Below are positions 1,229-55,442 of a stretch of 64,000 nucleotides of DNA, in pieces. Where the stretch lies: sequence record PZ445488.1; one strand, written 5' to 3'. The notes beneath the pieces were generated by a model. That model ran no database searches and was not told the DNA's origin. It saw only the letters and a program-made list of their open reading frames with translations. Every line of letters starts with the position of its first letter. The first letter of the stretch is position 1. This DNA is from a phage. Both the position numbers and the translations under genes were made by a program.

Positions 1229-2917
1229 TTATGAAACAGTCATTACCGTAAATCGTCCAACTTTGCTCATCTGAAGATGTTGTCCATAACGTTGAGGGTC
1301 ATGGTCTCGATGAGAGATAATGAACACATTAGTATTTTGTAAACTTCCAAGAATGGTATCTATAGCCTTAACAGCCTCAGAATCGACAGCACCATCAAAA
1401 ACCTCATCAAGAATCAGAGTGTTGATTTTAACGCCAGAGACCTTTTCAGCAATATCTCGCCATGTAAACAACAATGCGATATCGATACGTGCCTTTTCAC
1501 CTTGACTAAATGAAGCATAACTGAACTCTTCACGGCCACGTGATTTTATAGATTCATTGAATTCTTCGTCAATAGAAAACACGTAATCAGCTTCCATGAT
1601 TTTAAGATAGTGGTTAATCTGCTTGTTGAACAGAGGCACATATTTTTTAATGATAGCACCTTTAATACCAGAATCTTTTAACATATCTGTGATAATACCA
1701 CGATGGTATTTTTCAAGAACGATATCCGATTTTGTTTTAATGATTTTATCAAGTTCTTTTTGAAGCAAAGCTATCTCATCGGCGTGGTCGATAAATTCCG
1801 CCGAGGCTTGCTCTATTGCAGCTTTAACTTTCTTAGCTTTATCAATAGTGGCAATCATTGCTTGTTTCTTGGTACGGATATCGGATGCAAGGTCCTGTTT
1901 AGTCTTAACATTAGCTCGATATTCGTCCACTAGGACACTCAGATTATCTCTGTGGCAGGTAAGTTGCTCGAATGAGTGATTACATTCATGAAGCTTATCG
2001 GTAATCTTAGAGACAATAGGGTCACCCTGGTGCAACTGTGATGCGCAAGTAGGACATGTACCGCCATCATGATACATCTTAATAACTTTGTTATATGAGT
2101 CAATTTTAGATTTAATCAAGAATGCTTCTTGTCCGATCTTGTTGAATGCCTCAGTAGGGTCTTCGTCAAGAACGATATTAAGTAGACGCTCGTTAGCTTC
2201 TTCAATTTCTGCTTTTAATGAACGAGCTTCTTTGGCTAGGTCGTCATACATATTCTGTAGACGCGCTACATTATCGCCAGATAATTTCTTTTGACGTTCG
2301 ATATTCTCGTTATAAATCTTAATTTGTTGGATAATACCATCTTTCTTGGCATCGAGAACTTGTCCCTGGGAATTAAGTTCTCGAACTTGAGACTTATTGA
2401 TTTTATCCATTTCAGCTAGTGTTCCAACTTCTAATAAGTCTTCAACAAGCTTTCTGCGAGCAGGGGTGCTAAGAGCCATGAAAGGGGTATACCCTGCCGT
2501 CCCAAGCACAACGATCTGTTTAAAAGACGCGTATGACATTCTGATGCTACGTTCAAATTCTTCTTGGAAGTCACGACTGCTGGCAGATTCATCAAGACGA
2601 ACACCGTCAACGGAGATTTCGAAAATATTAGGCTTTTGGCCTCGTTTAATGAAGTATTTTTTATCATCGAATTCCATCCAAAGCTCAACTAAGAGCTCTT
2701 TCTTGTTCGTGCTATTAATGATTTGTCCTTTCTTAACATCACGAAATGGTTTACCGAAAAGTCCGAAAGTAATGGCTTCTAACATCGTAGATTTACCACC
2801 GCCATTTTTACCAGTGATTAATGTCTTTTGGACTTTATCTAATTGGATATCAATAGGATTCCCACCTACCGACATGATGTTTTGATAACGAACACGATTT
2901 AATTTAAATGATTTCAT
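1229..2917 (-). CDS. 46: recombination endonuclease subunit gp46 (Rad50/SbcC-like ATPase)
   Basis: 562 aa; Walker A GKNGGGKST; long coiled-coil middle; zinc-hook-like CPTC; C-terminal ABC signature region; T4 gp46 size. Confidence 0.92.
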   Translation of the reverse strand: MKSFKLNRVRYQNIMSVGGNPIDIQLDKVQKTLITGKNGGGKSTMLEAITFGLFGKPFRDVKKGQIINSTNKKELLVELWMEFDDKKYFIKRGQKPNIFEISVDGVRLDESASSRDFQEEFERSIRMSYASFKQIVVLGTAGYTPFMALSTPARRKLVEDLLEVGTLAEMDKINKSQVRELNSQGQVLDAKKDGIIQQIKIYNENIERQKKLSGDNVARLQNMYDDLAKEARSLKAEIEEANERLLNIVLDEDPTEAFNKIGQEAFLIKSKIDSYNKVIKMYHDGGTCPTCASQLHQGDPIVSKITDKLHECNHSFEQLTCHRDNLSVLVDEYRANVKTKQDLASDIRTKKQAMIATIDKAKKVKAAIEQASAEFIDHADEIALLQKELDKIIKTKSDIVLEKYHRGIITDMLKDSGIKGAIIKKYVPLFNKQINHYLKIMEADYVFSIDEEFNESIKSRGREEFSYASFSQGEKARIDIALLFTWRDIAEKVSGVKINTLILDEVFDGAVDSEAVKAIDTILGSLQNTNVFIISHRDHDPQRYGQHLQMSKVGRFTVMTVS

Positions 2918-4902: not shown

Positions 4903-5200
4903 TAATGATGTCCTCAATAGCCTGACGAGTAGTAACCCACTGGATTTTAATTAACTTGTCATTATATGGTTGTCGTAGAATATCCCGAGATTTCTTAATA
5001 GCATATTCGTAAGCTTCGAAGTTGTTTTGAATTGCTGCTTCTTGAGCATGAGCATAAAGACGGTTTAGTTCAAAACGATTCTTTTTAAGAATCTTTTCGG
5101 ATTTTTTACGTGCTTCAGCTTCATTTTTCTTTTGGATTTCTTGTAGCATTTTAGCTACTGCATCTTCTGCTTCTTTATTTTCAATAATCTCGGTAGTCAT
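4877..5200 (-). CDS. hypothetical protein
   Basis: 107 aa ORF with ATG start, Lys/Glu-rich. Confidence 0.45.
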   Translation of the reverse strand: MTTEIIENKEAEDAVAKMLQEIQKKNEAEARKKSEKILKKNRFELNRLYAHAQEAAIQNNFEAYEYAIKKSRDILRQPYNDKLIKIQWVTTRQAIEDIINGASSNKV

Positions 5201-5201
5201 A

Positions 5202-5417
5202 TTATCTCATTAAATTAAAATAAAAACGTCCATCCTCTTCAATACAGAACTCATACTCAACCGGAGTCCCATTTATCGAAAATGACACGTCATGTGGGTT
5301 CAAAGGGTCGATGTCAAAATTAATTTTAAATTCACGACCCAACAGTTTTACCAAATAAGGGATTGCTTCGTCAAAAGGTTCTTCTAAGTAGTTAGAGATG
5401 TCAATTGTCATCCTCAT
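5202..5417 (-). CDS. hypothetical protein (start uncertain)
   Basis: ORF immediately downstream of gene 55; internal Met chosen to avoid long overlap with 55. Confidence 0.35.
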
Positions 5418-18223: not shown

Positions 18224-19225
18224 TTATTTCAGTAAAGTTACTTCAGAGATTTCCTCCCAACCATCTTTATCAGTTGAAATAAAATCTGCTACATAAAGAG
18301 CCGTACGTAATGATACATTGCGAAGACGAGATACGTTAGCCTTCATCCAGGACAATGCTTTGTACGTTTCAGCATCAGTCAAGCCACGTTTCTGCATCAT
18401 GTCAGTAGATAATATTACATCTTCAACTCGAACCATAATCTCTTCATTAGAGTGTACTCCAAGGTCCAAATACACTGAACGAGATACTAAAGCTTGAAGG
18501 TGTGGAGCAAGTTTCGAACCGCGTTCTAACTCTTTATCAATATCAACGTTTGTAATGAAAACGATAGTACCTTCAAACTCAAATTCTTTATCGATACCCT
18601 TATCCTCGAGATAAGATGACGCAGTGCTCCAACAAACTTTGCGTTTATCTCCGGTATCTAATGCTGCTTTAAGAAGGTTCAGGATGTCCATATCTGAGAA
18701 TACGTCAACGTCATCGATTAAGAGAACGCTGTCTTCATCACGGTTGAGCCAAAGTTGTTCGTAAAGGCCAATACCGGAGATTTTACCATTAATGCTTTTG
18801 TATTTGATGAAACCATTATCATTAGCATTATTAAGTGCTTTATCCAGAGAATACGTCTTACCAATACCAGCTGCACCTGAAATAATGAGTGAACGAATTT
18901 TGCCATCAATAATGCCATTCGTCATCATGTTCATTACTTTAAAGCGTTTGTTGATACGAGTTTTCATATCTTCAGTGCTTTCAACAACTGCAACTGGTGA
19001 CGTCTCAACTCCTTCCATTACGATGTCTGATTTGAAGACCCATACTCCACGTTCAGAACCATCAATCATAACGAAAATTTTACCGTCACCTAAGTGGGAA
19101 CATTCAGGATTAAGCTTTGCCGGGAACCATGTCTTTGTGGCAACATAAGAACCAGAGATTTCGTTATTACGATAGATACCTTTTTTGATTTGAACGTTGA
19201 ACATTTTATTCTCCAATTTACTCAT
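18224..19225 (-). CDS. P-loop NTPase (Walker A/B) of unknown function
   Basis: 333 aa; Walker A GAAGIGKT, Walker B-like LLIDDVD. Confidence 0.6.
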   Translation of the reverse strand: MSKLENKMFNVQIKKGIYRNNEISGSYVATKTWFPAKLNPECSHLGDGKIFVMIDGSERGVWVFKSDIVMEGVETSPVAVVESTEDMKTRINKRFKVMNMMTNGIIDGKIRSLIISGAAGIGKTYSLDKALNNANDNGFIKYKSINGKISGIGLYEQLWLNRDEDSVLLIDDVDVFSDMDILNLLKAALDTGDKRKVCWSTASSYLEDKGIDKEFEFEGTIVFITNVDIDKELERGSKLAPHLQALVSRSVYLDLGVHSNEEIMVRVEDVILSTDMMQKRGLTDAETYKALSWMKANVSRLRNVSLRTALYVADFISTDKDGWEEISEVTLLK

Positions 19226-19233
19226 TTCGTTTC

Positions 19234-19271
19234 GATAGGTCTATAGTATCATATCCTAAAAGCATGTACAC
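19234..19271 (-). promoter_or_regulatory. PeSL-like early promoter with stem-loop
   Basis: GATAGGTCTATAGTATCATATCC...GTACA motif upstream of ATPase gene. Confidence 0.45.
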
Positions 19272-19300
19272 TACTTTTTAAAAATATTTTAACCCCCTAA

Positions 19301-19318
19301 GGGGACCCGAAGGTCCCC
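19301..19318 (-). terminator. GGGGACC-UUCG-GGUCCCC hairpin at 3' end of late gene
   Basis: Perfect 7 bp GC stem with UUCG loop 5 nt after stop of 19323..19589; near-identical hairpin at 37209..37224. Confidence 0.45.
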
Positions 19319-19322
19319 ACAT

Positions 19323-19589
19323 TTACTTATCACACTTAGCAACATAATTAGGCATATCACAGAATACAGAGCGAGTAACTACTCGTCCCTTTGACCATGC
19401 TTCAGTTGCTTGTCCGGCCGTGCTATTAATATAGCTTGATTTAATGTTCTCAATACCCTGAGAATGTGATGCATTTACCGAACCGTTAGAAGGCGCAGGA
19501 GCCGGTGGTAACCAGTCTCCTGCGCCCGTGGTAGCACCAACAGAGAATGCCATCATTACTGCGAATAAACCAATTACTAATTTTTTCAT
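19323..19589 (-). CDS. small secreted protein (signal peptide), late-promoter driven
   Basis: 88 aa; N-terminal MKKLVIGLFAVMMAFSVGA signal-like segment; TATAAATA 29 nt upstream. Confidence 0.55.
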   Translation of the reverse strand: MKKLVIGLFAVMMAFSVGATTGAGDWLPPAPAPSNGSVNASHSQGIENIKSSYINSTAGQATEAWSKGRVVTRSVFCDMPNYVAKCDK

Positions 19590-19616
19590 ATTTACCTCAA
19601 GTTAATGGTTATTTAT

Positions 19617-20606
19617 CTATTTATAGTAAGAATTATGATTTTCGAGATAGACTTGCTCAAGGAAATCATCCCAGAAACTCATATCTACTTTTTGTTGCAT
19701 ACCATTCTTGGCAGCTTGTTCTGACGCATGTTCAACTTGGTCAACGATATCTTCTAGGAATTCTTGTACAGTTTTAAACGTATGTTTACCAAGCTTAACA
19801 TCGAGAATAAATGGAGCATCTTGAAGTGGGTAAACCAGGTCGCCGGTTTTGTAAATTTCCAATAATTGAAGTCCACCACGACATGCATGACTCAATGCTT
19901 TCCAGTCAATACCTTCGTTAGCTTCTGCCTTACGAGCACGTTCACCATAGTTCTCTTCCAGTTTAACCAGGATGGCATTGAACTCTTTATTGGTTAACGT
20001 GTCTTGGAATTTACGGTCTAACAGATTATAGAATGTTTGCTTACCTGTTTTCTCGTTTTCGGTTTCAACCCACGAAGCAAATTCACCTACAGGCAGAACA
20101 TTCTTCATATGTGATAAACGAATTACTGCACCATTATCAAAGTATTGTCCCCATTCATTAGAACGTTTAAGGGCTTGACGAAGAACAGCCAGTCGAGAAC
20201 CCTTGACACCGTATTTAGAAGCTTGCTTACGGACATACCCTAAATAAGATTTCATGTTAGTGGTATAGAAACGAGACCTGTTATCTTGAATATACTTCCA
20301 TACATCAGGCAAATCAGATTTAACTACTAGACTTGGTGGAGTGTGAAGCATATCTAATGCGACGGTTTCACCATCCGCAGCTAGTTTAAAGAAATATTTG
20401 AGACTATACAACTCATGGTCTACGTCGTCTTTTGTGTTCTTAGAAGATGTGTTATTCGTGTTCTTGCTCATGTGTTCTTTAACGTTACCGGTCAAGATAT
20501 CACGAGCATGAGGGACATAAATTTCTTTAAAATCGACGTCAGATTCAGGAGTAGACGTTCCATAAAGGTGGCTACCAAAGTAGCTTTTCATAATTGTTTT
20601 CATCAT
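19617..20606 (-). CDS. Pol-beta-superfamily nucleotidyltransferase-domain protein
   Basis: 329 aa; N-terminal YFGSHLYGTSTPESDVDF matches the minimal nucleotidyltransferase signature GS-x(10)-D-x-D. Confidence 0.6.
   Translation of the reverse strand: MMKTIMKSYFGSHLYGTSTPESDVDFKEIYVPHARDILTGNVKEHMSKNTNNTSSKNTKDDVDHELYSLKYFFKLAADGETVALDMLHTPPSLVVKSDLPDVWKYIQDNRSRFYTTNMKSYLGYVRKQASKYGVKGSRLAVLRQALKRSNEWGQYFDNGAVIRLSHMKNVLPVGEFASWVETENEKTGKQTFYNLLDRKFQDTLTNKEFNAILVKLEENYGERARKAEANEGIDWKALSHACRGGLQLLEIYKTGDLVYPLQDAPFILDVKLGKHTFKTVQEFLEDIVDQVEHASEQAAKNGMQQKVDMSFWDDFLEQVYLENHNSYYK
19618..19625 (-). promoter_or_regulatory. T4-type late promoter TATAAATA
   Basis: Exact TATAAATA on minus strand upstream of 19323..19589. 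Confidence 0.5.
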
Positions 20607-21923: not shown

Positions 21924-21962
21924 GGTAGGACTACTATAACATAATCCTACCAAGATGTAAAC
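21924..21962 (-). promoter_or_regulatory. PeSL-like early promoter with stem-loop
   Basis: GTAGGACTACTATAACATAATCCTAC...GTAAAC on plus (GTTTAC -35 on minus). Confidence 0.45.
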
Positions 21963-22456: not shown

Positions 22457-22759
22457 TTAGATAGATGTAGGCTCTAATTTTATTTTCATGAACTCAGCAA
22501 ATTGTCTGGCAGTTTTTATGCCTTGTTCATGACATTCAAATGCATCATCACAGGGGCTATTTTTGTAATGCTTTGCCATATACTTATAGAATTTTTCAGA
22601 ATTCTCGACATTTTGAATTTCAAACAAAGTATATACGTTTTTAATCCCTGATTCCATAAAGTTATCAAAATATGGGTCAATATGTGCAGTACCAACGATA
22701 GGAGTTGTTGCTGCAAAAAACCCCAGCATCGCTATGACAGCTATCGCTCTTAAGGCCAT
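22457..22759 (-). CDS. rI: lysis inhibition regulator rI-like membrane protein
   Basis: 100 aa; N-terminal signal-anchor; similar to recalled T4 rI (MALKATALFAMLG...DPHFDKFMESGI...). Confidence 0.75.
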   Translation of the reverse strand: MALRAIAVIAMLGFFAATTPIVGTAHIDPYFDNFMESGIKNVYTLFEIQNVENSEKFYKYMAKHYKNSPCDDAFECHEQGIKTARQFAEFMKIKLEPTSI

Positions 22760-22771
22760 ATAGGCCTCCTG

Positions 22772-22984
22772 TTAATTTTGGCCAGTATTTATTTTTCGCC
22801 TTTGGACGGCCTTAACATCTGCGAGGTATTTTTCCAGCTTGCGCTTGCGTGTATAATCAGCTTTAGAACCGGTTTGACGGATATCCTCGTTTAAATGAGA
22901 AATAGAATGTCCTAATTCTCTTCGGATTTCGTCCAATTGGGTTACAGTAAGATTACGAAGTTGTCTTTCGTTTAATTGCTGCAT
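22772..22984 (-). CDS. hypothetical protein
   Basis: 70 aa basic ORF between rI and tk. Confidence 0.45.
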
Positions 22985-23011
22985 ATATACCTCTTGGTTA
23001 GATATTAGTAT

Positions 23012-23593
23012 TTATAACAACCCTGTCAAATCATTCCAATGCTTCCGGCATAATGACACGTATCTATCGGTATCACCAATTTCAATTTGACTGCCATCTG
23101 TAATTGGAAGTCCGTCTTCCGTGACTCTAGCTACCATTGTGGCCTTTTTACCGCAATGACAGACACCTTTAAGTTCAACAAGCTTATCGGCAATAGCCAT
23201 TAATGCTTGAGAACCTTCAAATAGATTACCTTTAAAATCTGTTCGTAGTCCATATGCCATTACTGGCACATTGTATACGTCAACAATACGACTAAGTTGA
23301 TACACCTTTTCAGTAGTTAAGAACTGAGCTTCGTCAACAAATACACAGTGAATATCCTTTTGTGCTGCAGCCCATTTATAGAATTCAAAGATATCCATGT
23401 CTTTTGTAATTATATTGGCATCCTGACGAATACCAATACGAGAGACTATTTCACCTTTTGAATCACGAGTATCAATAGCCGGTTTAAGAACTAATACACC
23501 CATGCCACGTTCTTTATAGTTATGTGCGGCAGTAAGTAATGAAGCAGACTTACCAGCGTTCATAGCGGCATAGGTAAAAATTAAACTAGCCAT
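23012..23593 (-). CDS. tk: thymidine kinase
   Basis: 193 aa; P-loop NAGKSASL, conserved TK motifs, C-terminal zinc ribbon CHCGKKA...LCRKH. Confidence 0.95.
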   Translation of the reverse strand: MASLIFTYAAMNAGKSASLLTAAHNYKERGMGVLVLKPAIDTRDSKGEIVSRIGIRQDANIITKDMDIFEFYKWAAAQKDIHCVFVDEAQFLTTEKVYQLSRIVDVYNVPVMAYGLRTDFKGNLFEGSQALMAIADKLVELKGVCHCGKKATMVARVTEDGLPITDGSQIEIGDTDRYVSLCRKHWNDLTGLL

Positions 23594-37177: not shown

Positions 37178-37208
37178 AACTTTTTCAGTAAGTTGTAGAC
37201 CCCCTAAT

Positions 37209-37224
37209 GGGGACCGAAGTCCCC
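37209..37224 (-). terminator. GGGGAC-UUCG-GUCCCC hairpin at 3' end of late gene
   Basis: 6 bp GC stem with UUCG loop, 6 nt after stop of 37230..37856; near-identical to 19301..19318. Confidence 0.45.
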
Positions 37225-37229
37225 ATTCT

Positions 37230-37856
37230 TTACTTACGAGTTTTTGCATACTGAGCAGCGTCAGCAGCCAAACGACCTGCTTGTCGAAGTTTTTCTTTAA
37301 TCTCATCATGAAGTGGTTGAGTATACTTCAAACCTTCGATAGTCAAATAAAGACGATAAAGGTCTGGGGTATCAAGGTTGTTGATATGTTGGCCATTACG
37401 AAGACTATTGAATTCACGAACGAGTGAAGATGTATCAGATTCAATATCACGAACAAGCGAAGATAGTTGTTTATATTTTTTTTCCAGGCTAGAAGTATCA
37501 AACTTAAGAGCAGGAGCTTTAGGAGTTGCTTTTACTTCCGGCTTAGGCTCAGGTTTTGCTACTGCTTTAGGGGTCGCAGGTTTAGGAGTGGTAGGAGCAG
37601 GTTTTACTTTAGGCGAACCAGATTTAGCAGAAACACCACCACTAACAATATCTTTGAATGCTTTAGAAGCTCTGTAATATTCTTTTTGGCTGGAAGTGTC
37701 GATACCGTACATGGCTTGAACGTTTTTGAAAAACTCTGTACTAGTTTTTGTACCAGAAATAGCATCGTAAGCAGCTTGCCATTTCTCTTTTGTCATACGT
37801 ACACCGGCTTCGGTGATTACTTCCGTTTCGGCTAAAAATTCATTAAAAGTATACAT
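37230..37856 (-). CDS. internal-protein-like protein (CTS-like N-terminus, Pro/Lys-rich linker), late-promoter driven
   Basis: 208 aa; N-terminus MYTFNEFLAETEVITEAG; PKPATPKAVAKPEPKPEVKATPKAP low-complexity linker; TATAAATA upstream. Confidence 0.55.
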   Translation of the reverse strand: MYTFNEFLAETEVITEAGVRMTKEKWQAAYDAISGTKTSTEFFKNVQAMYGIDTSSQKEYYRASKAFKDIVSGGVSAKSGSPKVKPAPTTPKPATPKAVAKPEPKPEVKATPKAPALKFDTSSLEKKYKQLSSLVRDIESDTSSLVREFNSLRNGQHINNLDTPDLYRLYLTIEGLKYTQPLHDEIKEKLRQAGRLAADAAQYAKTRK

Positions 37857-37891
37857 TGATGGTCCTTAGAAAGTAGGTTTATTGTTTACTA

Positions 37892-37899
37892 TATTTATA
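37892..37899 (-). promoter_or_regulatory. T4-type late promoter TATAAATA
   Basis: Exact TATAAATA on minus strand ~36 nt upstream of ATG 37856. Confidence 0.5.
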
Positions 37900-37900
37900 C

Positions 37901-37928
37901 AAAAAAGCCCCAACCTTTCGGAAGGGGC
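37901..37928 (-). terminator. rho-independent terminator (GC hairpin + U6) at distal end of tRNA region
   Basis: GCCCC..CCTT-TCGG-AAGG..GGGGC hairpin followed by TTTTTT on minus strand. Confidence 0.55.
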
Positions 37929-37971
37929 TATATACCTTGTCGGGGTTTCCACCTACTAGGTAAGTGTTTGT

Positions 37972-38063
37972 ACGAAACGCCGGGATTCGAACCCGGTTAT
38001 TAAGCAGTTGACGCTACTCAATATTTTTAAAAGGCCATATCTCTACCATATCCGAACGTCCCG
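37972..38063 (-). ncRNA. tRNA-like element: canonical T-arm and acceptor 3' strand but no convincing cloverleaf (tRNA remnant or stable RNA)
   Basis: Minus sense CCGGG-TTCGAAT-CCCGG followed by CGTTTCG-T; possible 5' partner CGGGACG 85 nt upstream gives 92 nt; D and anticodon arms not convincing. Confidence 0.3.
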
Positions 38064-38594: not shown

Positions 38595-38671
<77 letters not shown>

Positions 38672-38674
38672 AAT

Positions 38675-38749
38675 TGGTGACCCTGGCTGGTTTCGATCCA
38701 GCTACCTATCAGTTATGAGCTGACAGCTCTCCCATTGAGCTACAGGGCC
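38675..38749 (-). tRNA. tRNA with CAU anticodon (Ile2-type as in T4, or Met), CCA encoded
   Basis: Minus strand GGCCCTG-TA-GCTCAATGGGAGAGC-T-GTCAG-CTCATAA-CTGAT-..-GCTGG-ATCGAAA-CCAGC-CAGGGTC-A-CCA; manual cloverleaf. Confidence 0.75.
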
Positions 38750-44398: not shown

Positions 44399-44406
44399 TA
44401 TAAATA
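44399..44406 (+). promoter_or_regulatory. T4-type late promoter TATAAATA for gene 53 / baseplate operon
   Basis: Exact TATAAATA on plus strand in the 4/53 divergent intergenic region. Confidence 0.5.
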
Positions 44407-44413
44407 GTATTAT

Positions 44414-44421
44414 TATTTATA
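44414..44421 (-). promoter_or_regulatory. T4-type late promoter TATAAATA for gene 4
   Basis: Exact TATAAATA on minus strand ~27 nt upstream of gp4 ATG. Confidence 0.5.
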
Positions 44422-54578: not shown

Positions 54579-55442
54579 ATGTATATTCAAACTCCAAAAC
54601 AATTGATTGACGTTGGCGAAATTGGTAACGCTTCTACAGGCGATATCCTTTTTGACGGCGGTGTTAAAATAAACAATGATATAAATGCTATTTACAATGC
54701 GTTTGGTGACCAACGAAAAATGGCAACTGCTAATGGGACAGGACCAAATGGACAAATAATCCATGCCACTGGATACTATCAAAAAGGAGGCCCTACTGAT
54801 TATTTCACCCCTGTTCCAGTAGGAAGTAGACACGACATAGATGCTTCTACCGGTGGTGTTATTGTTACTGTTGCTAGAGGTGAACTCGGCGATTCCGTGG
54901 AATTTATAAATTCAAACGGGTCAATTTCTGTAAACAACCCATTAAGTATCCAAGCATTAGATTCTATTAAAGGTGTTGCAGGTAATTTAGTTATAACTAC
55001 ACCTTATACTAAAGTTACTCTTCGTTGTATTTCTTCTGGTGCAGGCGGTTCAATATGGGATTATTCTACAGAAAGTATGTTTAGTCATACCGAAATTCCT
55101 GTAGACGGGACATGGAATATTATTTCAGACTATGTCAATATTCCTCTATTTTATAAAACCGAATATAATGCTGCTAAACTTTTGGTTACATGCCAATCTG
55201 CCAACGGCAGAAAAATTAAATCATGTGAAATAAATATTCTAATAGATACAATTAATTCAAGAGTTATTTCAACCGAATACGCAGTGATGCGCGTTGGTAA
55301 TGATAACGAAGAAGACGAAATTGCTAATATTAGTTTTTCGATAATTAACAATTTTGCCACTATGACAGTTTCTTCACATATAAATGGTCTTCGAGTGGCA
55401 GCTAAAGTTATTTCAACTCAGAAAATTAGGGTCGCTCAATAA
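54579..55442 (+). CDS. 9: baseplate wedge / long tail fibre connector gp9
   Basis: 287 aa; MYIQTPKQLIDVGEIGNASTGDILFDGG...; T4 gp9-like. Confidence 0.9.
   Translation: MYIQTPKQLIDVGEIGNASTGDILFDGGVKINNDINAIYNAFGDQRKMATANGTGPNGQIIHATGYYQKGGPTDYFTPVPVGSRHDIDASTGGVIVTVARGELGDSVEFINSNGSISVNNPLSIQALDSIKGVAGNLVITTPYTKVTLRCISSGAGGSIWDYSTESMFSHTEIPVDGTWNIISDYVNIPLFYKTEYNAAKLLVTCQSANGRKIKSCEINILIDTINSRVISTEYAVMRVGNDNEEDEIANISFSIINNFATMTVSSHINGLRVAAKVISTQKIRVAQ

Follow-up and report, generated by a model that had tools for sequence, protein, structure and literature searches.

The 88-aa ORF that lies between the nrdC.11 and nrdC.10 genes of phage CEV1 is a real gene, largely ordinary, flanked by standard T4-type control elements. 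CEV1, an RB69-like Mosigvirus to which the 64-kb window (the whole stretch of DNA that was analysed) belongs, was isolated for the control of E. coli O157. Our best explanation, to which we give as a whole a probability of about 0.7, is that of an accessory gene with an exported product and dual transcription, whose messages would end, or be protected, at a hairpin, and which would be exchanged at a boundary of the PeSL type. The ORF, a late-promoter octamer upstream of it, the hairpin and an early promoter behind the hairpin are all on the minus strand.

The ORF and its genomic setting

The ORF proposed in the initial annotation at 19323..19589 is indeed present; it runs from 19589 to 19323, ATG to TAA with the stop codon included, belongs to PHROG 2243, and its product starts with MKKLVIGLFAVMMAFSVGA. 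It is under coding constraint: dN/dS is 0.02 for VR25 versus 04086 and 0.10-0.21 for the window versus other genera, with dS values of 0.7-1.7 in these comparisons. The reading that the ORF is not a real gene is excluded by this range (0.02-0.2).

Upstream of it lies an nrdC.11-like nucleotidyltransferase gene (19617..20606, minus strand, 329 aa; PF10127 RlaP, 6e-13; PHROG 388), whose T4 and RB69 orthologues are annotated nrdC.11, and downstream an nrdC.10-like AAA-ATPase gene (18224..19204, minus strand, the start at 19204 being taken from the annotation of relatives). Both belong to the early class, with early promoters and ribosome-binding sites of the RegB type, which bears out the earlier placement of the ORF among early accessory genes. 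The slot between them is hyperplastic, and the ORF behaves there as a presence/absence cassette: T4 has nothing in the slot, RB69 and SF carry ORF72, and other phages carry other ORFs. In JM17 and phi25-307 the two ORFs occur together, and the early promoter, in duplicate, flanks ORF72 on both sides.

Transcription and translation signals

An exact TATAAATA (19618..19625, minus strand), located 28 nt before the ATG and not 29 as first annotated, is probably a functional late promoter of the gp55 type. Such promoters are defined by TATAAATA at -13 to -6, with no need for a -35 element, and by an AT-rich downstream region (PMC2988020, PMC1524935). Besides the octamer, the site has an AT-rich opening region, GATAAATAACC, and a same-strand gene shortly downstream, the placement (28-32 nt before ATG) being typical; a late transcript is predicted to start near 19612, which would leave a 5'UTR of about 23 nt. 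That the octamer lies inside the 3' end of the nucleotidyltransferase gene is correct, since at 19625..19618 it is formed by the end of nrdC.11 (TAT AAA TAG, the two final codons with the stop).

Another possibility, unlikely in our opinion, is that TATAAATA is an unused by-product of the Tyr-Tyr-Lys-stop end of nrdC.11 and that the ORF is transcribed early (or early and middle) by read-through, like other novel T4-like ORFs. It is in line with the number of exact octamers in the window, which is at chance level (9 found versus 8.6 expected), and for this reason enrichment was dropped as evidence and replaced by a positional test. TATAAAT is found, too, at the nrdC.11 stop of loci that lack the ORF (T4, RB69, SF, JS98-like), and part of the octamer's conservation comes from coding, because it overlaps conserved Tyr-Lys-stop codons. 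However, seven of the nine exact octamers precede a gene start on the same strand by 15-35 nt, where random positions would give 0.48 of nine; none of 2000 random trials reached seven, and 8% of the one-mismatch octamers are in promoter position. The eighth base also argues against a by-product: it is A where the ORF follows, the octamer being exact in all 12 ORF-bearing Mosigvirus copies, and G in all nine YYK-ending nrdC.11 loci without the ORF, which have TATAAATG. These 12 copies are about 95% identical, so that they represent approximately one evolutionary event. The typical spacing to the ATG and the AT-rich stretch weigh on the same side, and the late promoter of the initial annotation stands in its position and in its exactness among the 12 copies. 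The rI.1/rI pair of the window also has TATAAATA, at 23016. Nolan et al. 2006 reported late promoters only before orthologues of T4 late genes and classed novel ORFs as early, which favours the by-product reading; their RB69 tables are silent on the ORF because RB69 does not have it. Our literature search found no usable Mosigvirus transcriptome.

Two further points in favour of read-through concern the other promoters. The ORF is the last cistron of an early unit that starts from an early promoter near 21961 and passes through nrdC.11, and no terminator was found between that promoter and the ORF. In Gaprivervirus and Dhakavirus the homologues lack TATAAATA and carry middle promoters of the MotA type. 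The window has more MotA motifs than expected (10 versus 1.7), and none that could serve as a middle promoter for the ORF was found in CEV1 within about 4.7 kb upstream. The term 'late cassette' used initially is therefore too narrow: the late promoter is probable, but the upstream early unit is unterminated and the homologues are under MotA promoters.

The ribosome-binding sites, in contrast, speak against a by-product. The RegB consensus, GG*AGRAYARAA (PMC3014915), is found at those of both flanking early genes, with an exact match to the strong consensus at nrdC.10 (GGAGAATAAAA, 19214..19204, minus strand), and is absent at that of the ORF, where the Shine-Dalgarno sequence is GAGG (19595..19598, minus strand, 5 nt before the ATG). 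Since this site contains no GGAG and is not a RegB target, the ORF mRNA should stay translatable after the inactivation of early mRNAs.

The 88-aa protein and its family

From the N-terminus on, the protein has a signal peptide of the Sec type, then a hypervariable linker and finally a domain of 55 aa that is invariant and contains two cysteines. For a Sec (SPase I) signal peptide we looked for a positive n-region, a hydrophobic h-region of about 10-16 residues and small residues at -3/-1. Residues 1-19 (19533..19589, minus strand), assessed manually, read MKK / LVIGLFAVMMAFS / V-G-A, that is, a positive MKK n-region, a core (LVIGLFAVMMAF) with a mean Kyte-Doolittle hydropathy (KD) of 2.76 and V-G-A|T. 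Cleavage is predicted at A19|T20. In an alignment of Mosigvirus, Gaprivervirus and Dhakavirus, the MKK start, V at -3 and A at -1 are kept, with a core KD of 2.3-2.8. The signal-peptide-like N-terminus noted initially thus proves to be conserved in three genera, and an oxidising compartment would suit the two cysteines that are invariant at the C-terminal end. The lipobox L-[AS]-[GA]-C is absent, as no Cys occurs in the window protein up to residue 70.

Cleavage may be questioned. It is possible, and to our mind rather unlikely, that the N-terminal segment stays uncleaved as a signal anchor (or a releasable one of the SAR type, as in T4 rI), in which case the linker would hold the domain at the inner membrane, on its periplasmic side. 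A tether would be the best reading of a flexible linker whose length varies and which comes right after a hydrophobic segment, Gly, Ala and Ser are abundant in that segment, and a homologue of rI is encoded at a distance of 3 kb. But the hydrophobic core is of about 16 residues only, V-x-A|T at -3/-1/+1 is strictly kept in the three genera, as expected by signal peptidase I, and no sequence similarity to rI was found. Export with cleavage thus remains the reading that we prefer.

The linker (residues 20-33; 19491..19532, minus strand) is rich in Gly, Ser and Pro and differs in length and sequence among relatives; family proteins range from 86 to 93 aa. The region coding for it contains a perfect 35-bp palindrome (19492..19526) with 10-bp arms and a 15-bp centre. 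Relatives have the centre in the opposite orientation (reverse complement), so that the window shows a micro-inversion in frame, with DWLPPAPAP in place of AGGNQSSGP.

The conserved mature domain (residues 34-88; 19326..19490, minus strand), with its invariant Cys77 and Cys86, is predicted with low confidence to form a long helix followed by a C-terminal Cys loop. The structure prediction for the full-length protein, from a 12-sequence alignment, has a pLDDT of 51.6, and that for the mature domain alone one of 62.5; the models are too poor for a fold search and, with such values (52 and 62), the fold says nothing on function. The family is narrow (17 clusters), and no homologues were found beyond the three coliphage genera. 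An exhaustive HMM profile search of 1.84 billion representatives returned the family's own cluster only, Pfam, PADLOC and PDB profiles gave no match to the protein, and its hhalign probability was about 1% with both the rI antiholin and Spackle. Our best guess, made with low confidence, is that it could be an envelope-directed accessory factor of mid to late infection, acting for instance in the exclusion of competing phages or in the modulation of the envelope or lysis.

The hairpin and the boundary behind it

The hairpin announced downstream of the ORF is present, beginning 4 nt after the stop codon and not 5. It is a C(UUCG)G tetraloop hairpin, GGGGACC-UUCG-GGUCCCC (19301..19318, minus strand), with a dG of -15.3 kcal/mol; its 18-mer sequence has no other copy in the window with up to 3 mismatches, the expected number being 0. 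It is under structural selection: among eight positionally homologous alleles, five of the eight pairs show compensatory double changes, 95% of the cells are paired (none of 500 shuffles gave as high a value) and the UUCG loop is invariant in seven. Shuffle z-scores for the region are modest, from -1.2 to -1.3, since the G-run next to the stem allows pairing in shuffled sequences too, and covariation is the better evidence for the hairpin. In O157tp3, a related genome, there are 21 C(UUCG)G hairpins, and CTTCGG has twice its expected frequency.

It had been suggested that this hairpin is a late-gene terminator. An intrinsic terminator should have a U-tract, but here the tail of the stem is UUAGGGGGUUAAAA, and UUAGGGGG stands where the U-tract would be; the homologous hairpin of T4 and VR25 does have U5-6. 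The hairpin is therefore not a canonical terminator, and its termination efficiency is uncertain. A TTAGGGGGT run (19292..19300, minus strand) immediately follows it, in common with the RB69/SF allele and with a site at 37 kb.

Nor is the hairpin the ORF's own. Behind it is a T4-type early promoter (19243..19271, minus strand; -35 GTGTAC at 19271..19266, 17-nt spacer, -10 TACTAT at 19248..19243), which has one mismatch, in the -35, to the consensus TTTACW-N17-TAYWAT (PMC4122927). Boundaries of the PeSL type, in which a stem-loop precedes an early promoter of the T4 type between genes of a hyperplastic region, have been published (PMC2839356, PMC4122927), and the hairpin and promoter form one of these, so that they are not a private element of the ORF. 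At this junction T4, RB69 and SF, which lack the ORF, also show a C(UUCG)G hairpin with an early promoter after it, and Nolan et al. 2006 had already predicted a terminator and the promoter Pe:55296 there in RB69 (supplement). The promoter half of the PeSL recurs at least 12 times in the window. The ORF is not flanked by PeSLs on both sides, its upstream edge being the nrdC.11 stop codon; such flanking, which would let recombination between two PeSLs account for an indel, is seen for the adjacent ORF72 cassette.

We may also speculate that the cassette context of the ORF shifted it between temporal classes, with MotA/middle control in Gaprivervirus and Dhakavirus and gp55/late control in Mosigvirus, the late promoter having been born at the insertion junction through the TATAAAT microhomology that ends nrdC.11. 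We regard this as distinctly improbable. If true, octamers would serve, beside PeSLs, as sites where ORFan cassettes recombine or land, which would make this a 'late-promoter stem-loop' cassette, and the exported protein would be an unrecognised late-acting periplasmic factor, in exclusion or lysis timing for example.

The hairpin was said to be nearly identical to one at 37 kb and hence to belong to a possibly mobile element. The likeness holds for the core of the stem, 6 bp at 37224..37209 (GGGGAC-TTCG-GTCCCC), which extends there to 9 bp (AAUGGGGAC-UUCG-GUCCCCAUU, 37206..37227, minus strand) and is followed by AGGGGGT and an early promoter. This second copy is downstream of a PHROG 2280 gene (37856..37230) with its own TATAAATA at 37899..37892. 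Beyond the stem, the similarity of about 110 nt between the two sites is mostly the generic early promoter, and TTAGGGGGT is the only part that they specifically share. As a sign of mobility the likeness is weak: in IMG/VR the same 16-18-mer stem turns up, among the matches listed, in unrelated viral contigs of 31-66% GC, over 120 of them, and none of the matches listed for the bare stem had a T4-like context. The bare stem is thus convergent and useless as a lineage marker. The extended motif with TTAGGGGG has two matches in IMG/VR, one unrelated (high GC) and one a genuine relative of the 37-kb locus. It is highly improbable that late genes are carried around by the hairpin and TTAGGGGGT as a discrete element, mobile or recombining site-specifically. 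In favour of it, the two copies of the window come after variable accessory genes, one different from the other and both with TATAAATA, and the 37-kb type recurs behind the homologous gene on a distant viral contig of 144 kb; against it, besides the convergence of the stem and the scarcity of the extended motif, the complete O157tp3 genome has one copy, the RB69/SF allele retains TTAGGGGGT with a different stem and no ORF, and neither a recombinase nor a target duplication is evident.

Proposed explanation

Taken together, the features suggest a lineage-restricted accessory gene of RB69-like coliphages, placed in the slot between nrdC.11 and nrdC.10. Its product would be exported by the Sec pathway, with probable cleavage at VGA|T, and the mature protein would consist of a floppy linker and a helical domain of about 55 residues with one disulphide. 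Transcription would probably occur both early, the ORF being the last cistron read from the promoter near 21961 through nrdC.11, and late, from the gp55-type promoter formed by TATAAATA in the last two nrdC.11 codons and stop. With no GGAG at its ribosome-binding site, the message would escape RegB, which would cut the neighbouring early messages. Both kinds of transcript would end at the very stable C(UUCG)G hairpin, or be shielded there from 3' exonucleases, and the hairpin with the early promoter behind it would form a PeSL-type terminator/promoter boundary at which transcription restarts for nrdC.10 and at which recombination could bring about the gain or loss of the cassette.

Since none of the regulatory elements is new, the value of this case is incremental. 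If our reading holds, it illustrates neatly how ORFans are inserted by T4-like phages at pre-existing regulatory boundaries, with one accessory gene under different temporal promoters according to genus, and the protein would join rI and Spackle on the short list of small exported T-even proteins that act on the envelope. The ORF is a reasonable knockout candidate for superinfection-exclusion, lysis-inhibition and host-range phenotypes in phages such as CEV1.

Comparison with known systems

Hairpins of the C(UUCG)G type are reportedly present in T4 intercistronic regions. The one studied here resembles them in its C-G closing pair, UUCG loop and G+C-rich stem right after a stop codon, and no difference in kind was found; the ORF copy is followed by UUAGGGGGU where a U-run would be expected. 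With the rI antiholin and Spackle the protein shares a size of about 90-100 aa, an export signal at the N-terminus, cysteines in its periplasmic portion and a location among early genes together with a late promoter, whereas its domain is different, without detectable sequence or profile similarity. As in T4 late promoters, which depend on gp55/gp33/gp45 (Geiduschek & Kassavetis 2010, PMC2988020), there is an exact TATAAATA that needs no -35, an AT-rich downstream region and 28-32 nt to the ATG; unlike them, the predicted promoter would drive a non-structural accessory ORF from a site within an early gene, at its 3' end; homologues of that ORF are under MotA middle promoters in other genera. 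PeSL cassettes (Arbiol et al. 2010, PMC2839356; Comeau et al. 2014, PMC4122927) differ in that the 88-aa ORF has a PeSL downstream only, its upstream edge being the nrdC.11 stop fused to the octamer, in that its stem-loop does not have the U-tract of an efficient terminator, and in that the PeSL papers do not mention late promoters (0 occurrences in the 2010 paper). They are alike in the stem-loop directly followed by an early promoter and in ORFans that differ between close relatives, and the neighbouring ORF72 cassette lies between duplicated early promoters, as in the PeSL model.

Organization of the locus

Over the 551 bases that surround the locus, the source phage, a Mosigvirus (RB69-like T-even), matches a fragment of phage CEV1 at 100% identity and E. 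coli O157 typing phage 3 (O157tp3) at 97%. The arrangement described in the initial annotation, a small ORF between a late-promoter octamer and a hairpin, was confirmed, with slightly corrected distances and all elements on the minus strand. The 88-codon ORF (19589..19323, ATG to TAA) follows the nucleotidyltransferase gene (20606..19617; 329 aa, Pfam RlaP, PHROG 388), the orthologue of T4 nrdC.11, whose last two codons and stop (TAT AAA TAG) form the exact TATAAATA octamer (19625..19618); a 28-nt leader with a GAGG Shine-Dalgarno sequence separates octamer and ATG. The hairpin GGGGACC-UUCG-GGUCCCC (19318..19301; dG -15.3 kcal/mol) begins 4 nt past the TAA, and this 18-mer occurs once in the window. 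Compared with 11 other sampled Mosigvirus copies (L001 and others), the CEV1 lineage has lost 4 nt directly behind the octamer (19612..19625), so that nrdC.11 ends in TAG instead of TAA and the distance from octamer to ATG is 28 rather than 32 nt. In the hairpin of this lineage a C-G pair stands at the place of a G·U in the other 11.

A variable slot between nrdC.11 and nrdC.10

Comparison with relatives indicates that the nrdC.11-nrdC.10 junction is a gene-swapping hotspot. In T4, which lacks the 88-aa ORF, nrdC.11 ends TAT AAA TGA; the hairpin AGGGAGC-CUUCGG-GCUCCCU, with a run of U residues, comes directly next, and after it an early promoter and nrdC.10. In RB69 and SF, both Mosigvirus and also without the ORF, nrdC.11 ends TATAAATGA; then come the hairpin AGGGCC-UUCG-GGCCCU, the same TTAGGGGGT and early promoter as in the window, and a 72-aa ORF (RB69ORF102c). 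In the RB69 annotation (Nolan et al. 2006) this hairpin already figures as a terminator (55313-55326), and the early promoters, two in number, are named Pe:55296 and Pe:55018. JM17 and phi25-307 have both the 88-aa and the 72-aa ORF, and still other small ORFs occupy the slot in other T-evens. Since the ORF-less T4, RB69 and SF have a UUCG hairpin and an early promoter at the same junction, we take the hairpin to be where the nrdC.11 transcription unit ends throughout this set of phages, the 88-aa ORF having been inserted between the nrdC.11 stop codon and this hairpin/promoter boundary. The idea that the ORF came with its own matching hairpin is thus not upheld.

Two further cassettes were seen in the slot. 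The 72-aa one (PHROG 6001) is bracketed by two near-identical early-promoter copies (…ATGTTATTATAGACCTATC…), at 1900..2280 of the JM17 locus L003 and 4930..5350 of the RB69 locus L156; this duplication, adjoining the 88-aa ORF locus, is a textbook case of the promoter-early stem-loop (PeSL) style. The other, a basic ORF of 62 aa (MKVFLSYGRP…CRETGRR…C), is a slot-specific ORFan of Gaprivervirus and Dhakavirus, where it lies between nrdC.11 and the 88-aa ORF homologue (loci L151, 3510..3780; L153, 2240..2500; L155, 2198..2490).

The hairpin and the question of a mobile element

Among eight positionally homologous hairpin alleles the stem sequences differ while pairing is kept: compensatory double changes are found in 5/8 base pairs and 95% of cells are paired, with 0/500 shuffles scoring as high, and the UUCG loop is retained in 7/8 alleles. 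Such covariation is good evidence for selection acting on RNA structure. Because the window stem is followed by UUAGGGGGU instead of a U-tract, it does not fit the definition of a canonical terminator, and in this phage its main role may be to stabilise the 3' end of the RNA, or it may be a weak terminator.

The initial annotation also proposed a shared, possibly mobile, late-gene terminator or stability element, on the grounds of a second hairpin at 37 kb (37227..37206, minus), which has a 6-bp-core version of the same stem. The two sites share ~110 nt at 79% identity, through TTAGGGGGT and the early promoter, and within the window the hairpin+TTAGGGGG half is confined to them. The promoter half, searched with a profile of the two copies, recurs at 12 or more further minus-strand window sites, and is therefore the generic early promoter of this phage. 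Among the matches listed, more than 120 unrelated viral contigs (GC 31-66%) contain the bare stem GGGGAC(C)UUCG(G)GUCCCC, mostly in terminator use and never with TTAGGGGG, so that stem identity is convergent. C(UUCG)G hairpins are also a genome-wide habit: there are 21 in O157tp3, where CTTCGG has twice its expected frequency, and the complete O157tp3 genome has one copy of TTAGGGGG, at the 88-aa ORF. A 37-kb-type hairpin does reappear behind the homologous gene in a distant 144-kb contig, but for these reasons the case for a mobile element is weak.

(A)TTAGGGGGT stands after both UUCG hairpins (19292..19300 and 37198..37206) in place of the usual U-tract. It is kept in the RB69/SF allele (loci L156 and L126) despite a different stem, and at the 37-kb-type locus of the 144-kb contig. 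The 37-kb gene (PHROG 2280, function unknown) is just downstream of tRNA-Met and tRNA-Arg (38749..38595, minus). Between them, in the region 37887..38000 (minus), is a tRNA-like stretch (…GGTTCGAATCCCGG…), followed by a terminator hairpin and TATAAATA; ARAGORN and Rfam gave no call on it, ~110 nt of it are kept in 635 phage records, including Tequatrovirus, and we presume that it may be the counterpart of small stable RNAs encoded in the tRNA region of T4.

Expression of the 88-aa ORF

The count of TATAAATA in the window (9, with 8.6 expected) shows no excess over chance, and in a complete relative the two strands have 10 and 18, where about 15.6 per strand are expected. Their placement departs strongly from randomness: 7 of the 9 exact octamers precede a gene start on the same strand by 15-35 nt, as compared to 0.48/9 for random positions, and none of 2000 random-position trials reached 7. 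Only 8% of one-mismatch octamers are so placed. This leaves exact octamers almost restricted to promoter positions, and the octamer before the 88-aa ORF is one of these. At 44399..44421 both strands have an exact copy, the two being back to back with 8 nt between them. The copy on the minus strand precedes a 149-aa ORF by 26 nt, and the pair has the look of divergent late promoters.

Four observations speak for a functional late promoter before the 88-aa ORF. The octamer is an exact consensus followed by an AT-rich stretch (PMC2988020, PMC1524935); its spacing to the ATG is typical, and the positional statistic also speaks for it; at its eighth position, 12/12 sampled Mosigvirus copies with the ORF have A (stop TAA or TAG), against G (stop TGA) in 9/9 YYK-ending loci without it; and the ribosome-binding site, UUGAGGUAAAU, has no GGAG, while both neighbouring early genes have the exact RegB strong consensus GG*AGRAYARAA (GGAGAATAAAA and GGAGAACAAAA).

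Purely late expression is another matter. Our search found no terminator on the way from the early promoter near 21961 to the ORF, which leads one to expect read-through early in infection, and since the ORF-bearing Mosigvirus copies are ~95% identical, the 12/12 match amounts to about one evolutionary event. The homologues in Gaprivervirus (VR7, VR25) and Dhakavirus (04086) lie behind another small ORF, without TATAAATA, and have a MotA-box middle promoter (TGCTT[CT]A, 12 nt, TAnnnT); in the window MotA motifs are in use (10, with 1.7 expected), and none is near the 88-aa ORF. The class of promoter preceding the gene differs by genus. These points count against a purely late gene, and our reading is that the ORF would be expressed early by read-through, then again late from its own promoter.

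The 88-aa protein

Between-genus comparison shows this to be a real gene: dN/dS of the conserved domain is 0.02 (VR25 versus 04086) and 0.10-0.21 (window versus VR25, VR7 and 04086), at dS 0.7-1.7. The protein begins with MKK and a 12-16-residue hydrophobic core (mean Kyte-Doolittle hydropathy 2.3-2.8), followed by a V-x-A|T motif (the bar marks the predicted cleavage) kept in three genera, a Gly/Ser/Pro linker variable in length and sequence, and an invariant C-terminal domain of ~55 residues with two invariant cysteines; there is no lipobox. We infer from this anatomy a periplasmic protein with one disulphide, exported by the Sec route and cleaved by SPase I. The interpretation of the initial annotation is supported in part: its calls of export and of a late promoter are reasonable, those of an own matching hairpin and of a shared mobile element are not supported. 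The lysis or superinfection role that it proposed is speculation.

PHROG 2243 (function unknown), to which the protein belongs, is a very small family, with 17 clusters at 90% identity and 103 phage records; about 100 GenBank records already list the ORF as a 'hypothetical protein'. When 1.84 billion representatives were searched with a profile, nothing beyond the family came up, and comparisons with Pfam, PADLOC, PDB, rI and Spackle gave no match. AlphaFold models, of low confidence (pLDDT 52 and 62), suggest one long helix and a C-terminal Cys loop, nothing more. The linker contains a 35-bp perfect palindrome (19492..19526; 10-bp arms GGCGCAGGAG/CTCCTGCGCC, 15-bp centre), whose centre is the reverse complement (14/15) of the relatives' sequence and whose right arm is 'corrected' to the left. 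An in-frame micro-inversion, or a quasi-palindrome template switch, seems to have turned AGGNQSSGP into DWLPPAPAP.

Comparison with known systems

Published PeSLs consist of a stem-loop and then an early promoter, in hyperplastic regions, bordering ORFans that differ among close relatives (PMC2839356, PMC4122927). The nrdC.11-nrdC.10 junction is alike in that a stem-loop and an early promoter, GTGTAC-N17-TACTAT (one mismatch to the T4-type consensus), border variable ORFans. It differs in its upstream cassette boundary, at which a late-promoter octamer and the stop codon of the gene before it are fused; the PeSL papers do not discuss late promoters. This fusion allows one to speculate that TATAAAT microhomology served as a recombination junction for the cassette. 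The regulatory pieces are each of a known kind: T4 late promoter, C(UUCG)G hairpin and PeSL.

As for timing, T4 rI is reported to be expressed both early by read-through and late. In the window, the 88-aa ORF has homologues of rI (22457..22759, minus; the antiholin of lysis inhibition) and rI.1 (22772..23016, minus) 3 kb upstream, and this pair too has an octamer in promoter position, an exact TATAAATA 24 nt before the rI.1 start, which gives the region a second small exported protein with a late-position octamer.
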